From positions 70,543 to 134,542 of the forward strand of contig JBGSHK010000008.1 in NCBI GenBank assembly GCA_041752275.1: a stretch of DNA of 64,000 nt, given 5' to 3'. The position numbers were made by a program, and so were the translations under genes. The DNA comes from Minisyncoccia bacterium. Lineage in GTDB: Bacteria > Patescibacteriota > Minisyncoccia > Phycocordibacterales > CAIZLB01. The notes below the pieces were generated by a model that ran no database searches, was not told where the DNA came from, and worked only from the letters and a program-made list of their open reading frames with translations. Below, piece after piece: positions 1-4,014 of the stretch. Numbering within the stretch: position 1 is the stretch's first letter; each line of letters begins with the position of its first letter.

Positions 1-156
1 GGAAAAAATGGGTATAAATTCATACGAAAAAAAAGATGTTAAGTATATTCGTAATATTTTAGATCAATTAAATATAAAACTAGAAAGACAAGGAATAAAG
101 GATCTTTTTATAAGATCAGGTGAATCTGTTCAGATAAATAAAAAGTCTCTGTAATG

Positions 157-188
157 ACTTAAGTCGACTTAAGTAATTCTAAGTCGCT
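157..188. repeat. Three tandem copies of a 9-11 bp motif CTTAAGTCG/CTTAAGTAA/TCTAAGTCGC, containing GTCGAC and CTTAAG palindromes.
   Basis: Read directly from the sequence at 157-188. Confidence 0.5.
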
Positions 189-222
189 CAAATGATACAT
201 TCATAATGCCCGCAGGGTATTT

Positions 223-450
223 ATGAATAGTTCACAAACAAATTCAAAACAAAAAATATTGACTGATAAACTCGGTCTTGTTTTAAGTGATGATGAAATA
301 ATTGAACTATCTAAAAAACTATCCAGGCTAGCAACATTAATAAATAAACATCAAATTAGAATCAAAACCAATCTCGAGAGAGATCTTTGTCAACCCTGGG
401 ATGAATCCCGCGAGGGGGTTGTAAAACAAACAGCTCGTGGGCGAAAGTAG
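223..450 (+). CDS. Hypothetical small protein (element-borne).
   Basis: 75-aa ORF with no recognisable motif. Confidence 0.3.
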   Translation: MNSSQTNSKQKILTDKLGLVLSDDEIIELSKKLSRLATLINKHQIRIKTNLERDLCQPWDESREGVVKQTARGRK

Positions 451-703
451 GCCTCTGGTGTACGGGAAGAATGCAGGAGCTTGCCACCTAGGTCGTCATA
501 TACCAAATAATTTCTGAAATTTACTTTTTGACGACATGTGTACCACAGTCTTTTTCAAGAGACGGTGAAATAAGTAAATGAATTAATAAAGTTTTAATTT
601 TCCTTCAAGTATTCTCTTGGGGGTAGGGGGGGGATTCTCAGTCTCCTTGGTCCCAGGAAGAATGTGTAAGTGAGAAAAAAATAATTATATATAATCTAAA
701 ACT

Positions 704-1087
704 ATGAAGAATACAAAAATATTTAAATTATTTCAACAAAACAGAATGATTTATGCGGGTAGGTTATTCGCAAGATTGCAGGAGATGAGGTGTTTAAAGT
801 GTGATAATGGTAATTTAATAGATAATTTAATGAAAAAGAGGGTTGAATGTAATCAATCATGTTGCAATTTCAGTATTCCAAATAAAGAGATTAGTGAATC
901 AATGGCAAATCTTAAAAATATATCAGAACACCTTATAGGGAAGAATTCTTTTAGGGGACGGAAAAAGAAACGCGATAAAAAAATAAAGTATGTGTTAAAA
1001 CAATATGTAAATAGGGTTATTCAAAGGGATGTAGAAAAACAAAACAAAACAAGATTAAACTCTAACCCAATGCAACAAAATGGATAA
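704..1087 (+). CDS. Hypothetical Lys- and Cys-rich protein (element-borne).
   Basis: 127-aa ORF with a CLKCDNG...CNQSCC cysteine pattern and a basic C-terminus. Confidence 0.3.
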   Translation: MKNTKIFKLFQQNRMIYAGRLFARLQEMRCLKCDNGNLIDNLMKKRVECNQSCCNFSIPNKEISESMANLKNISEHLIGKNSFRGRKKKRDKKIKYVLKQYVNRVIQRDVEKQNKTRLNSNPMQQNG

Positions 1088-1101
1088 TTTTATAAAAATA
1101 T

Positions 1102-1141
1102 AAATGTCGCCAAATGTCGCGATTTTAAAAAAACAAATGTC
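1102..1141. promoter_or_regulatory. Direct repeats AAATGTCGC x2 plus AAATGTC, spanning the start codon of the HTH gene.
   Basis: Copies at 1102-1110, 1112-1120 and 1135-1141. Candidate operator or recombinase-accessory site. Confidence 0.35.
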
Positions 1142-1682
1142 TAAAAAAACAACAAAAAACAAAGATGAACACAGAATAGAAATGAGACAAAAGCAGGTAT
1201 TCATACTGCATCTCCAAGGTGTATCTATACCTATGATAGCTGAGGCTCTTAAGGTAAATACAAGGACTATAGACAGGGACCTGAGTGCATTCAGGGAGAA
1301 TAAGGTTAAATGGTTAAATGAGCAGATAAAAAAGTTCAACGTAGAGGAATATTGGGTTAAGAGAATAGAGGTAATGGAGAATATTATAAAGACTAACTGG
1401 TCACACTTAGCAGAGTCAGATGCACGAGACCGGGTGAGACTGTCGGCTGAGATAAGAGAATGTTACAAAGAGATGGATTTATTACTCCGATCAGCAGGTG
1501 TAAAGACAACACTAGTAGATCCAAACGACATAGCACAAGACACTATCAAAATAATATATCAAGGAACAGAATCACCCGTACAAACTAGAAACAGAATATT
1601 ATTAGCCAAAAGAGAGGAAAGAAGAAAAAGAGAACAAAGGGAAAAGTCGCTCCGGGACGAAAATGAAGAAGAAGATTACTAG
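1104..1682 (+). CDS. HTH-domain protein (putative regulator or recombination directionality factor). Acidic/basic coiled C-terminus.
   Basis: Helix-turn-helix-like segment GVSIPMIAEALKVNTRTIDRDL. Sits immediately upstream of the recombinase. Confidence 0.4.
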   Translation: MSPNVAILKKQMSKKTTKNKDEHRIEMRQKQVFILHLQGVSIPMIAEALKVNTRTIDRDLSAFRENKVKWLNEQIKKFNVEEYWVKRIEVMENIIKTNWSHLAESDARDRVRLSAEIRECYKEMDLLLRSAGVKTTLVDPNDIAQDTIKIIYQGTESPVQTRNRILLAKREERRKREQREKSLRDENEEEDY

Positions 1683-1738
1683 ACTTAACCTCCATAAAAT
1701 AATAGTGTGTTAACTAATCAAAAAGTAACAACAAACAT

Positions 1739-3460
1739 ATGCAACAAGACATAATCAAATCAACAAAATTTATAATTTATTCACGTAAATCATCAGAGGA
1801 CTCATCTGATAAACAAGCACTGTCGATTCAGTCTCAAATCAATGAAAATAACAGACTTATTAAAAGGTATAATATCCCACAATCAAGTGTTGAATACATG
1901 CAAGAATCTAAGTCTGCTAAAAAGTCAGGTACAAGACCTATATTCAATAGTTTGGTCCAGAAAATAGAGAGTGGAAAGATCGACGGAATAATAGTCTGGC
2001 ATCCTGATAGACTATCAAGAAACGCAGGTGATGTTGGCAGGCTAATAGACCTCATGGATGACGGTAAACTAAAGTGCATAGTCACACATCAACAAACATA
2101 CTTAAACAGACCATCTGACAAAGCATTCTTTGGAATGATATGCACCCAAGCAAAGATGGAAAACGATAACAAAAGTGAAAATGTAAAAAGGGGATACAAA
2201 AGAAAATGCGAACTAGGATATTTGCCTACATCAGCCAAGGTTGGATACAAAAATGACTTCGGTGAAAAGGGCTATTGTAAAATGCTCGATGACCCCGAGA
2301 GATTGCCTCTTGTTCAAAAAGCCTTGAAGATGTTTCTAACAGGAAACTATTCTATAAACAGCATGTATGAAGTATGTAGGGATCAGTTAAAGATAGTAAC
2401 AGTTCAGAAAAGAAGATTGGGAGGTAGACCACTATCAAGATCGGCGGTCCATAACATGTTAAGGGATTCATTCTATGCGGGATTTTTCTATCACAAAGAC
2501 GAGTTCGGAGAAAGTATCAGATATGAGACAAACAAATCCCTGACCAGAATAATCACTGAAGCTGAACATTACAAGATACAAGCATTACTTGGAAACAGGG
2601 GTAAGCCAAAACCAAAGACATATGTAAAACAATTTCCATACAAGAGGTTTAGTAAAACACCTGACAACATACCTTTCACCGCAGAACCAAAGTTTCAAGT
2701 TATATGTCCAACATGTAAATACAAATTTGCATATCAAAACAAAACTCATTGTCCAAAATGTAATCTGAAAGTATTGGAGATGATAAATGCAAAGTATCTA
2801 GACTATGTGTACTATCACCCAATAAAAAGAGATACAGGCGGTCCAAAGAATGTCTGTATCACAGAAAAAGAGATCACCGAGCAAGTTCTGAAGCATTTTG
2901 ACAGTAGCTGGATAGCACACCCAGTTTTCACAGAATGGATCGTAGAAAAACTTAAAGAATCAGAGTCAGAAGAAAAACAACTACAAACAACCATCAAAGA
3001 TACAGTAAACAACCAAGTTGAAGACCTTAAGCTCAAACTAGACAAATTGACCGACATGAAGCTCCGAGACATGATAGATGATGACGAATTCTTGGCAAAA
3101 AAAGACGCTTTAAAGGCACAAATAAAGTCAGTCGAGCAAAGTAACGAGTATGGAGAAAAAACGCAATCTGAAGCCAAAATTGACCTCTACAGAGCCTTCT
3201 CGGTAACCCAGGACATAGAGAGTATATTGAAGAAAGGAGACTATGACGAGGTGGTGGAGCTACTCTCAATATTTGGTTCGAACCTAAAGATAAATGGAAA
3301 AGTAGTCAATGTTTACAACGATATTTTGATACAGAAAATCGAAAAGGCATTCTCTGAAATTAAACAGAAGAATGCCTTGTTCGAACCTAAAAATCTTCAG
3401 GATTTATCGGACTCAAATCCAGTTTTCGTGGATGTCCGTCCTGACTTGCTCCTCCGGTAG
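1739..3460 (+). CDS. Large serine recombinase (resolvase/invertase-type N-domain, recombinase domain, zinc ribbon, coiled coil).
   Basis: N-terminal YSRKSSEDSSDKQALSIQSQ and GIIVWHPDRLSR motifs. Cys4 ribbon CPTCKYKF...HCPKCN. C-terminal coiled-coil region. The last 12 nt including the stop lie within the tRNA-Asn 3' end. Confidence 0.85.
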   Translation: MQQDIIKSTKFIIYSRKSSEDSSDKQALSIQSQINENNRLIKRYNIPQSSVEYMQESKSAKKSGTRPIFNSLVQKIESGKIDGIIVWHPDRLSRNAGDVGRLIDLMDDGKLKCIVTHQQTYLNRPSDKAFFGMICTQAKMENDNKSENVKRGYKRKCELGYLPTSAKVGYKNDFGEKGYCKMLDDPERLPLVQKALKMFLTGNYSINSMYEVCRDQLKIVTVQKRRLGGRPLSRSAVHNMLRDSFYAGFFYHKDEFGESIRYETNKSLTRIITEAEHYKIQALLGNRGKPKPKTYVKQFPYKRFSKTPDNIPFTAEPKFQVICPTCKYKFAYQNKTHCPKCNLKVLEMINAKYLDYVYYHPIKRDTGGPKNVCITEKEITEQVLKHFDSSWIAHPVFTEWIVEKLKESESEEKQLQTTIKDTVNNQVEDLKLKLDKLTDMKLRDMIDDDEFLAKKDALKAQIKSVEQSNEYGEKTQSEAKIDLYRAFSVTQDIESILKKGDYDEVVELLSIFGSNLKINGKVVNVYNDILIQKIEKAFSEIKQKNALFEPKNLQDLSDSNPVFVDVRPDLLLR

Positions 3461-3520
3461 GGATCGAACCTACGACCAATCGCTTAACAGGCGACTGCTC
3501 TACCGCTGAGCTACAGAGGA
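3449..3520 (-). tRNA. tRNA-Asn (anticodon GTT). CCA is not encoded.
   Basis: Reverse complement reads TCCTCTG-TA-GCTC-AGCGGTA-GAGC-A-GTCGC-CTGTTAA-GCGAT-TGGTC-GTAGG-TTCGATC-CCTAC-CGGAGGA-G. Gives a 7-bp acceptor stem, D-, anticodon- and T-arms, and a GTT anticodon. Confidence 0.85.
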
Positions 3521-3635
3521 ATGAATTAGGATGGGCTGAAGTCTTTTCGATTAAATATACCCAGGGGGCATAATAAATGAAACAACCTCAACCCAACCTG
3601 TTGAAATATTATCAAAAAAACAGAGATAACGCAAT

Positions 3636-3995
3636 CTATACAATTTCCTTATCAACATGTCTTCCATAATCATCTTCAAGTCTGACTATATCATTTTCAT
3701 CAAATTCACCAAAGGCTATTTCCAAGACTTTCCCGGGTATATTTTTACCAATCAGTCTATGTGTCATGTTTTTTTCAATAATATACTCATCTCCGATTTT
3801 GACATCAATTTTTTTACCATCTATTTCAAAAATAGCTTCACCTTCAATTAATTTCCAAAATTCTTGTCTATTGTTGTGATACTGTAAACTTAATCTTTGA
3901 TTAGGTTTTATTGTTAATATTTTTACTGTACTTATTTCATTCTGTGTAAATATTTCTTCTGATCCCCAAGGTCTTTCATCGTATTTTATATTCAT
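3636..3995 (-). CDS. Cupin-type mannose-6-phosphate isomerase (stand-alone type II PMI cupin domain).
   Basis: RPWGSEEIF...LQYHNNRQEFWKLIEGEA matches the ManC/PMI cupin core. Confidence 0.6.
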   Translation of the reverse strand: MNIKYDERPWGSEEIFTQNEISTVKILTIKPNQRLSLQYHNNRQEFWKLIEGEAIFEIDGKKIDVKIGDEYIIEKNMTHRLIGKNIPGKVLEIAFGEFDENDIVRLEDDYGRHVDKEIV

Positions 3996-4014
3996 AGCTA
4001 TATTCTATCTTATT

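Follow-up and report, generated by a model that had tools for sequence, protein, structure and literature searches.

Background

Serine integrases are the main enzymes for placing large DNA cargoes in genomes. To our knowledge, the characterised large serine recombinases (LSRs) insert into protein-coding genes or intergenic DNA, and tRNA genes have been considered to lie outside the natural targets of serine integrases. According to Mageeney et al. 2020 (PMC7192596), no integrase of this kind had been reported to use a t(m)RNA gene. The LSRs of LI/A118, Bxb1, PhiC31, SPbeta (SprA) and TP901-1 have the same domain order as the protein described here, i.e., resolvase, recombinase and zinc ribbon with an inserted coiled coil, and the LSRs of phages and ICEs likewise use att sites with a short shared core. 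Relative to attP, attB has its outer (zinc-ribbon) DNA motif shifted 5 bp towards the centre (Rutherford et al. 2013, PMC3783163).

Integration at the 3′ ends of tRNA genes has been described for other types of enzymes. The phiRSM-type small serine recombinases integrate there, as does the family studied here, but lack the large C-terminal part of the present protein (recombinase domain, zinc ribbon and coiled coil). In Islander-type islands, which carry tyrosine integrases, the integrase gene lies beside a regenerated tRNA gene of which the function is kept, and the elements are small and bear cargo; all of this is also seen here, whereas the displaced tRNA fragment repeat of such islands is missing and the integrase belongs to another family with a different chemistry. 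In Mx8 (IntP/attP) and the fusellovirus SSV, attP lies within the integrase coding sequence and the 3′ end of the gene is replaced on integration, as we infer for the present family, and Mx8 also targets a tRNA gene. The Mx8 and SSV enzymes are, however, tyrosine recombinases with extended attP/attB identity, whereas the family described here consists of serine recombinases with a short core, would exchange only the last few codons and would take its new stop codon from the tRNA T-stem. What sets it apart from the characterised LSRs is the tRNA 3′ end as target, a core inferred to lie in the integrase ORF, and extra T-arm-like boxes.

Here, we analysed a stretch of 64,000 nucleotides ("the window") and compared its integrase locus with 80 homologous integrase loci. 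With a probability of roughly 0.8, we read positions 1-3452 as the right portion of a small integrative element, up to and including its attR junction, which its own LSR inserted at the 3′ extremity of tRNA-Asn(GTT). The host is most likely a member of the Patescibacteria (CPR). Insertion at tRNA ends rests on comparison, and recombination has not been demonstrated for any member of the family.

The integrase and its overlap with tRNA-Asn

The features of the locus are as follows:

1..154, + strand: last 48 codons of a 415-aa element gene (full gene at 539..1786 of Logan contig L002)
223..450, + strand: 75-aa small protein with the motif LSDDE..EL...L.RL (HMM)
704..1087, + strand: 127-aa Cys-rich ORF
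1104..1682, + strand: 192-aa putative helix-turn-helix protein (weak; sub-threshold Pfam only)
1739..3460, + strand: large serine recombinase (integrase), 573 aa (Pfam, PHROG, alignment, AlphaFold, Foldseek)
3275..3286, no strand: Box 1, GGTTCGAACCTA, T-arm-like, codons G513 S514 N515 L516 (synonymous-position conservation)
3379..3388, no strand: Box 2, GTTCGAACCT, wobble base of codon 547 plus F548 E549 P550 (conservation)
3397..3444, - strand: hairpin directly 3′ of the tRNA, in integrase codons 553-569, followed by AAGAUUUUUA; overlaps the P arm
3448..3452, no strand: GCTCC, attR core region (tRNA nucleotides 70-73 plus one), which must hold the crossover dinucleotide (junction comparison)
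3449..3520, - strand: intact tRNA-Asn(GTT), host-derived (B′ arm) except for its last few bases (ARAGORN, Rfam)
3464-3470: T-arm box TCGAACC of the tRNA-Asn gene (3449..3520, - strand)

The 573-aa protein is an LSR, as it meets the resolvase, recombinase, zinc-ribbon and coiled-coil criteria. The motifs YSRKSS, SIQSQ and WHPDRLSR are present, the N-terminus matches Pfam Resolvase (PF00239, E 2.7e-22), and the domain after helix E matches Recombinase (PF07508; 25.5 bits against a cut-off of 21.1), and the protein matches PHROG 95, annotated as "integrase" (2.8e-52). Residues Y14, R16, K17, S18, R66, R91 and R94 as well as the zinc-ribbon cysteines C323, C326, C338 and C341 are invariant in a 27-member alignment. 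The AlphaFold model (pLDDT 81) has beta strands at 312-361, in the zinc ribbon region, and a long antiparallel coiled coil at 395-442/448-499. Foldseek aligns the model with full-length serine integrases, namely those of SPbeta, PhiC31, Bxb1 and LI, at E down to 1e-18; matches to 4bqq and 4kis support the recombinase domain. With 4,928 database proteins at E ≤ 1e-10, the family is large and apparently undescribed, and it targets tRNA gene ends.

The stop codon of the integrase gene (TAG, 3458-3460) lies within the minus-strand tRNA-Asn(GTT) gene, placed at 3448-3520 by ARAGORN and at 3449-3520 by Rfam (68.7 bits; no family besides the tRNA was found by Rfam in window 1-4000 or in L002). The overlap is 12-13 nt, i.e., the last three to four codons and the stop come from the tRNA gene. 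An initial annotation of the window from its letters alone had proposed both the resolvase-type recombinase with Cys4 motif and coiled coil and its overlap with this tRNA, and both proposals stood up to the analyses above.

Among the 80 homologous loci, mostly from Patescibacteria, 52 have an integrase that reads into a tRNA 3′ end. ARAGORN calls the overlapping tRNA in 42 of them (Asn 23, Gln 7, Ser 4, Pro 2 and one each of Arg, Met, Tyr, Phe, Lys and Asp), and the other 10, all Asn, show the overlap when a group I intron in the tRNA or truncation by a contig end is taken into account. All of them have the integrase in an identical frame relative to the tRNA end. Because the same overlap recurs in the same frame in 42 + 10 of 80 loci, it is, on this comparison, far beyond chance. 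A tyrosine recombinase gene alongside the integrase was found only in the Gln/Ser/Arg/Lys clade and is absent from the window.

Eight loci without a called tRNA (L003, L005, L009, L016, L020, L026, L027 and L054) were first taken for intact attP sites because their tRNA similarity ends in the anticodon loop and is followed by a conserved GTGGACTATATCATCA. Rfam instead found a group I intron (67-85 bits) that interrupts tRNA-Asn at position 35/36, and the attP reading was rejected. An intron at this position of tRNA-Asn was already known (PMC13011429). The same loci had seemed to favour the geometry that is the norm for tyrosine-integrase islands (Islander, PMC4383910), in which recombination takes place well inside the tRNA, in the T-arm or anticodon loop, and a displaced repeat of 12-45 nt, left because the element brings its own copy of the tRNA 3′ half, marks the far end, as several of them appeared to retain the tRNA 3′ half only. 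The introns remove that support; moreover, no tRNA-half repeat occurs within 10 kb upstream in any locus, the mapped junctions share far less sequence (see below), and the integrase next to the junction is by Pfam a serine and not a tyrosine recombinase, so the tyrosine-family criterion of Islander-type islands is not met. A crossover deep in the tRNA thus appears already contradicted by the sequences compared, and we consider it barely tenable.

Junctions, core and reconstructed attP

The reading of the locus as an element inserted at the extreme 3′ end of the tRNA draws on 16 relatives for which both junctions could be mapped. The far junction (attL) of these places their sizes at 4.1-11.5 kb. 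The identity between attL and attR is 4-9 nt in 15 of them and 15 nt in the remaining one (L054), with no longer repeat detected, and tandem arrays together with loci for which both junctions are available restrict it to GCTCC (Asn type) or GCTG (Gln type). A short shared core is the expectation for an LSR. The TCC/GGA inner motifs are arranged symmetrically about a point between T3450 and C3451, and we infer that the crossover dinucleotide lies at or beside T3450-C3451; the exact dinucleotide is not fixed. Scanning each locus for its own junction core followed by GTTCGAAC gave 17 matches on the integrase strand, 15 of which have exactly the +20 spacing, versus none on the opposite strand (18 versus 0 when the core was set to 4 nt and the spacing was fixed). 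In L017 and L026, the sequence to the left of attL contains a canonical terminator, which fits DNA that once lay downstream of the tRNA.

In three tandem arrays (L011, L046 and L051), a P-core-P′ junction separates the two integrases. The recombination core is placed inside the integrase ORF both by comparing the junctions and by the attP tails that were reconstructed, so that after integration the gene takes its stop codon from the tRNA. When the P and P′ arms are joined, the ORF is open again and continues into a conserved tail, ...LLR-(T/G)-W-D-D-V-R-T... (e.g., ...LLRTWDDVRT), in agreement with naturally tailed integrases. A core within the ORF and a change of the C-terminus upon integration are nevertheless inferences for the family and are not shown for the window copy, because its P′ arm is unknown. 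If they hold, this would be a second, independent case of an integrase C-terminus rewritten by integration, after Mx8 and SSV in the tyrosine family.

Measured from the junction anchor, TCGAACC occupies +17 to +23 in the tRNA arm versus +22 to +28 in the P′ arm, so that the T-arm box lies 5 bp nearer the core in the tRNA. This shift matches the attB/attP rule for LSRs, for the right-hand arms only. A mirror-symmetric outer box was looked for in the P arm and none was found, and the reconstructed attB sites show no conservation in their left (B) arms; the half-site model is for these reasons supported on one side only.

Conserved boxes and a hairpin within the integrase gene

Two more GTTCGAACC boxes occur within the integrase gene and are conserved at the DNA level. 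The third-position entropies of Box 1 (0.59, 0.45 and 0.00; 52 sequences) are among the lowest of the whole gene. In Box 2, the wobble base of codon 547 is G in 50 of the 52 sequences despite a varying amino acid (entropy 2.96), and the following GAA and CCT are found in 52 and 47 sequences, respectively. The T-arm-like boxes are read in three different frames (GSNL, FEP and VRT).

The hairpin at 3397..3444 has a dG of -17.4 kcal/mol (z -3.4). In 31 of 52 loci, an equivalent hairpin falls within the top 5% of the gene's 40-nt windows by stability, and compensatory changes are visible in the alignment. RNAalifold did not recover it from the 52-sequence alignment because its register shifts between clades, and it was therefore tested sequence by sequence. 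On these grounds it is likely to serve as the transcription terminator of the tRNA; the element would then swap the native terminator of the tRNA for a hairpin encoded in the last ~20 integrase codons.

From these features, a mechanism can be proposed. Comparison with the relatives shows that the family inserts in a fixed register at the 3′ ends of tRNAs. We infer that the zinc-ribbon domain binds the T-arm box, and as the distance between this box and the 3′ end does not vary among tRNAs, the family could switch tRNA species by altering only how the acceptor stem is read. In such a division of specificity, the T-arm box would be the common anchor and the acceptor stem the discriminator. More broadly, we put forward as a tentative hypothesis, which we would sooner expect to fail than to hold, that an undescribed clade of serine integrases reads the universal tRNA T-arm box by its zinc ribbon and hops between tRNA species, and that, because the integrase gene spans attP, a long-tailed protein is made from the circle and a tRNA-terminated one from the integrated element; this switch and the additional boxes could control directionality or expression. 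We know of no such built-in control in serine integrases. With thousands of members on the ends of at least 10 tRNA species in a fixed geometry, the family is a natural set of related enzymes whose target sites differ and are highly conserved.

Gene content and the left side of the element

The 415-aa gene starts 1094 nt to the left of the window. Its full sequence is available from the Logan contig L002, which is identical to window 1-1658 and runs 1632 nt further left, bringing the sequence available for the element to 5.08 kb; exact look-ups of the window proteins retrieved only two Logan contigs, both from SRR28170465. The 415-aa protein has no Pfam or PHROG match, and no conserved sequence was found in the regions upstream of genes of its type. 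A full-length homologue (28% identity) lies 2-3.3 kb upstream of the integrase in L061, and partial matches occur in L068 and L076. An HMM built from the 75-aa protein and eight relatives has hits in 43 of 80 loci; every hit shares the strand of the integrase and precedes an integrase gene by 0.2-4.6 kb. Excision by an LSR needs a separate directionality factor. The 75-aa protein is a conserved integrase partner and a candidate directionality factor or regulator without functional evidence; we infer it to be the best candidate for the excision factor.

The 127-aa Cys-rich ORF has no family match in Pfam or PHROG. Its position corresponds to that of an HTH_17/zinc-ribbon protein in elements of the L061 type, and homology has not been shown. 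The 192-aa ORF has sub-threshold Pfam matches to Sigma70_r4_2, HTH_23 and HTH_38 and a spurious-looking PHROG match (phrog_645, "RNase E").

The initial annotation had described an integrative element with co-oriented small ORFs upstream of the integrase, within which the window starts and of which the partner junction lies off-window to the left. This outline is supported by the 415-aa gene, the 75-aa family and the relatives, and the ORFs at 223-450, 704-1087 and 1104-1682 are indeed co-oriented (+), whereas the helix-turn-helix call for one of them has no more than the sub-threshold matches behind it. The test suggested with it, a search for a second copy of a 12-45 nt tRNA 3′ segment, found none in the window or in L002. 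The criterion was wrong for this family: since mapped attL and attR sites share so little, a copy of that length is not expected, and its absence would wrongly have refuted a correct interpretation.

The attL of the window element was not found in the 5.08 kb available, which puts the left end of this copy more than 1.6 kb outside the window. A GCTCC at L002 329-333 was considered as attL and rejected because it has no GTTCGAAC box at +20 and its read-through peptide is unrelated to the conserved tail. A partial 85-aa flank protein at the left of L002 has no database match. The window copy could be truncated, as attL is unfound and only 1.6 kb left of the window was recovered, and the data from this organism include neither an empty site nor a circular junction. 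The missing attL would also suit an immobilised remnant that kept the integrase and the right junction, lost or degraded its left end and became a fixed, possibly domesticated locus, and L020 shows that arrays of orphan P′ remnants occur in the family. However, the integrase has an uninterrupted ORF that retains every invariant catalytic and zinc residue, the 75-aa and 415-aa partner genes are present in their usual order, and a left end beyond 5.08 kb is normal given that mapped relatives reach 11.5 kb; we regard a remnant as unlikely, and favour an element with its left end outside the sequence recovered.

The integrase could also belong to a temperate phage with structural genes further left. 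A single-sequence scan of IMG/VR with the integrase gave no match, and a profile scan gave distant relatives only (28-31% identity), which lie on contigs called viral and of which two read into tRNA-Asn. Against a prophage, the only PHROG matches in the known 5.1 kb are the integrase and phrog_645 (the part left of L002 is unseen), and all 16 mapped relatives have the small sizes given above. The one relative that was annotated (L017) encodes anti-phage nucleases and defence domains and no capsid or terminase domain (Pfam), and several other loci carry restriction-modification genes upstream of the integrase. We give a prophage little credence and retain a small integrative element as the preferred reading. 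Such cargo shows a route by which CPR bacteria with very small genomes gain defence genes.

Large chromosomal contigs from Bacteroidota also carry tailed integrases that have an intact attP-like site and lack a tRNA within 10 kb; tandem insertion accounts for these only if the elements are large. LOOT RNA was detected in 7 of the 10 loci scanned. In the window, the G+C content falls from ~0.35-0.40 to 0.20-0.30 immediately beyond the tRNA.

A serine integrase gene ending in tRNA-Asn

The 573-aa open reading frame (ORF) at 1739–3460 (+) of the window is a large serine recombinase (LSR), and it meets every membership criterion that could be tested: it matches the Pfam families Resolvase (E = 2.7e-22) and Recombinase (25.5 bits, above the cut-off) as well as PHROG 95 "integrase" (2.8e-52). 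Its AlphaFold model (mean pLDDT 81) has the expected domain order, with a catalytic domain, a recombinase domain and a beta-rich zinc ribbon, plus a long two-helix coiled coil at residues 395–499, and Foldseek matched it to the full-length SPbeta, PhiC31, Bxb1, and LI integrases (E 1e-18 to 1e-8). An alignment of 27 members shows no variation at Cys 323, 326, 338, and 341 or at the catalytic-domain residues. The initial annotation had described a 573-aa LSR ending inside the 3' end of tRNA-Asn; Pfam, PHROG, and Foldseek confirm the enzyme and ARAGORN and Rfam the tRNA, and because the stop codon falls in the tRNA T-stem, the final 12–13 nt of the ORF are tRNA sequence:

3449–3520 (−), tRNA-Asn(GTT), Rfam 68.7 bits (3448–3520 according to ARAGORN)
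3458–3460 (+), integrase stop codon TAG, inside the tRNA T-stem

The G+C content is about 0.35–0.40 on the integrase side and 0.20–0.30 past the tRNA. Just upstream of the integrase gene, L001 and L002, the two Logan contigs of sample SRR28170465 covering this stretch, overlap by only 27 nt (window 1632–1658), which suggests a branch in the assembly graph caused by strain variation or a repeat.

tRNA overlap across the integrase family

The protein database holds 4,928 relatives of the integrase at E ≤ 1e-10, the closest of which (35–43% identity) come nearly all from Patescibacteria genomes. Together with the low G+C, these relatives lead to the inference that the host of the window element is also a Patescibacteria bacterium. 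Among 80 related loci fetched from species-representative genomes, the integrase ORF enters the 3' end of an opposite-strand tRNA detected by ARAGORN in 42 (Asn 23, Gln 7, Ser 4, Pro 2, and Arg, Met, Tyr, Phe, Lys, and Asp one each). The overlap is mostly 13 nt and reaches 31–96 nt in loci where the tRNA contains no early stop codon, and once an encoded CCA is allowed for, every integrase ORF meets the tRNA end in one and the same frame. Ten further loci with overlap carry a tRNA-Asn that is either interrupted by a group I intron or, in one case, cut by the contig end, which brings the window-type arrangement to 52 of the 80 loci. The overlap is a trait of a whole integrase family.

These ten loci were first taken as free attP sites, because the tRNA similarity stops in the anticodon loop, a reading rejected once Rfam RF00028 (67–85 bits) placed a group I intron at tRNA-Asn position 35/36 or the tRNA proved to be truncated by the contig end. 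ARAGORN misses the intron-bearing genes because the intron splits anticodon positions 35 and 36. Group I introns at this position of Patescibacteria tRNA-Asn have recently been described (PMC13011429). Intron-split tRNA-Asn(GTT) genes beside an integrase include:

L003 3034–3345 (−)
L005 11099–11340 (−)
L016 11730–12025 (−)
L020 11705–12016 (−)
L054 11607–11888 (−)

Some of the introns contain an HNH-type ORF (L003 3232–3573, L027 11862–12188), and the L054 tRNA lies in a metagenome-assembled genome labelled Gammaproteobacteria.

Element ends and crossover

A duplicated tRNA 3' segment upstream of the integrase had been proposed as the test for an integrated element. No second copy was found in the window, in an extra 1.6 kb to its left, or in the 10 kb upstream in any related locus, and the expectation is wrong for these elements: with a short core and no extended identity between the far junction (attL) and the integrase/tRNA junction (attR), as is the behavior of serine integrases, a search for repeats would give a false negative.

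The ends were instead found through the integrase C-terminus. Integrases without an adjoining tRNA continue into a conserved tail, ...LLR(G/T)(L/W)D(D/N)VRT, encoded by GCTCC-N14-GTTCGAACC. In three tandem arrays (L011, L046, L051), the upstream integrase has this tail and the downstream one ends in the tRNA, as would be expected if the two element arms (P and P') met around a core at the junction between neighboring elements. For every integrase linked to a tRNA, we then scanned the upstream sequence for a copy of that locus's junction core with GTTCGAAC after it. A core of 5 nt gave 17 matches on the integrase strand versus none on the opposite strand, 15 of the 17 at exactly +20; with a 4-nt core and fixed spacing, the counts were 18 and 0. 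These matches are attL sites, which in 16 loci bound elements of 4.1–11.5 kb. Joining the P arm at attR to the P' arm of the same element at attL restores an ORF with the conserved tail, so that two protein forms, tailed and tRNA-ended, are inferred by comparison. In L017 and L026, the DNA to the left of attL contains a canonical terminator, a hairpin with a T-run, on the tRNA strand; this is the DNA that followed the tRNA before insertion.

In Asn-type elements, attL and attR have GCTCC plus 0–4 more bases in common, and in Gln-type elements GCTG. Identity limited to this region would place the crossover within the last four tRNA nucleotides plus one, again a comparative inference. The inner motifs, TCC on the left and GGA on the right, mirror each other around a point between bases 3 and 4 of GCTCC, which in the window corresponds to the point between 3450 and 3451.

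Upstream of one integrase (L020), four core-plus-P' sites (GCTCCAGACTTGGGAGGATGTTCGAAT; at 987, 2009, 3080, and 3597) with differing left flanks occur within 2.6 kb and look like remnants or integrase-less mini-elements from repeated insertion at one tRNA. Long-tailed integrases with an intact attP-like site and no tRNA within 10 kb were found in nine loci (L022, L024, L035, L037, L038, L042, L045, L055, L065), which lie on megabase chromosomes (Bacteroidota and other large genomes) and carry the same accessory genes on both flanks; in L065 only the integrase gene has the opposite orientation with respect to these genes. Tandem insertion does not obviously explain the tailed integrases of this set.

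Attachment-site geometry

Counted from the G of GCTCC, the T-loop and T-stem word TCGAACC occupies +17 to +23 in the tRNA arm, and the same box lies at +22 to +28 in the P' arm. The zinc ribbon of the Listeria integrase binds a DNA motif that is 5 bp nearer the center in attB than in attP, an offset that underlies directionality (Rutherford et al. 2013, PMC3783163) and that the right-hand arms of the present family match exactly. The zinc-ribbon domain may thus read the T-arm box, although there are no binding data; the equal distance of this box from the 3' end in every tRNA would explain how ten tRNA species are used in one register. The left-hand arms fit less well, as the reconstructed target (B) arms lack conservation and no outer box is present in the P arm. 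All binding motifs proposed for these sites are deduced from comparison alone.

Apart from its target, the tRNA 3' end, the enzyme conforms to known LSRs. We know of no serine integrase whose gene spans attP, and no description of the present family was found in the literature searched. Use of tRNA genes by LSRs was seen in only 14 of 297 computed cases (Mageeney et al. 2020, PMC7192596). The integrase genes of Mx8 and SSV, both of the tyrosine family, do span attP and have their 3' end rewritten by integration (PMC4383910, PMC6070905), a gene arrangement that they have in common with the serine integrases studied here.

Constraint on the last codons and the adjoining hairpin

In a codon alignment of 52 family members, the third positions with the lowest variation in the whole integrase gene lie in its C-terminal part, where two T-arm-like words are conserved at synonymous positions:

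3275–3286, box 1, GGT TCG AAC CT (GGTTCGAACCTA), codons 513–516
3379–3388, box 2, xxG TTC GAA CCT (GTTCGAACCT), codons 547–550

The wobble G of box 2 is retained in 50 of 52 sequences despite a freely varying amino acid, and the third positions of codons 567 (T) and 570 (G), which adjoin the core, are also among the least variable; invariant residues elsewhere (N95, N172, Q26, Cys) show ordinary third-position variation. As box 1, box 2, and P' read the same word in three frames, as GSNL, FEP, and VRT, respectively, selection acts on the DNA (or RNA) word and not on the peptide. Lying about 172 and 69 nt from the core, boxes 1 and 2 are too distant for a minimal att site; we hypothesize, without binding data, that they are accessory integrase-binding sites.

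Between box 2 and the core, directly 3' of the tRNA on the tRNA strand, lies a hairpin with clear compensatory changes between loci (such as CGGAGG/CCTCCG, CCGACAC/GTGTCGG, and CGGACGC/GCGTCCG), and in most cases a T-run comes after it. In 31 of 52 loci the hairpin is among the top 5% of 40-nt gene windows, and the window copy has dG −17.4 kcal/mol and z −3.4. It would serve as a tRNA terminator brought in by the element to replace the native one, which is displaced to attL. AlphaFold confidence is low for residues 545–573, encoded over box 2, the hairpin, and the P arm, which fits a tail shaped mainly by its own DNA.

Gene content of the elements

The window starts inside a 415-aa gene that is complete in L002 and whose homologues in L061, L068, and L076 lie 2–3 kb upstream of the integrase; this upholds the earlier proposal that the window begins within the element. 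The suggested search of the upstream ORFs for phage or ICE genes returned no phage or conjugation genes in the known 5.1 kb of this element. No attL was found in the known 5.08 kb, and the element must therefore exceed this length. A 75-aa ORF (223–450) belongs to a small-protein family that in 43 of 80 loci is encoded upstream of, and on the same strand as, the integrase, and it is the strongest candidate for the role of directionality factor or regulator. A G+C-rich non-coding stretch preceding the 415-aa gene (L002 256–538, 1377–1095 nt left of the window start) folds much more stably than its shuffled versions (dG −77 versus −55 kcal/mol, z −5.0) and contains a 12-bp perfect inverted repeat (GTTACCATCAAC/GTTGATGGTAAC). 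No Rfam family matches it, and its sequence is not conserved in the corresponding regions of relatives; a structured RNA and an origin-like DNA element are both possible.

The elements are small integrative islands. The only complete relative annotated (L017, 9.6 kb) is dominated by defense-type nucleases, encoding a MrcB/NucS-type nuclease, a Shedu nuclease, and a Schlafen-like protein; L061 and several further loci have Type I/III restriction-modification genes upstream of the integrase. Of ten related loci scanned with Rfam, seven, all of the tRNA-Asn type, contain LOOT RNA (RF03000, 77–86 bits), an orphan Rfam motif that thereby acquires a genomic context:

L005 7741–7856, LOOT RNA
L013 8230–8345, LOOT RNA
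L016 7660–7775, LOOT RNA
L017 8033–8159, LOOT RNA
L020 9326–9457, LOOT RNA
L026 6659–6779, LOOT RNA
L050 8766–8892, LOOT RNA

The motif lies 0.5–3.3 kb upstream of the integrase and, in the six loci with a mapped attL (not L016), between attL and the integrase; neither the window nor L002 gave a match. Beside LOOT RNA and small ORFs, the 9.6-kb element also contains a SAM riboswitch match barely over threshold (RF00162, 48.3 bits, L017 8496–8596 (−)). In the Gln/Ser/Arg/Lys clade, a tyrosine recombinase gene (Phage_integrase, E 1e-14) and a gene for an Xis-like HTH_17 protein lie immediately upstream of the serine integrase (L061 8658–9761 and 12 other loci of these types), so that these elements hold two unrelated site-specific recombinases.
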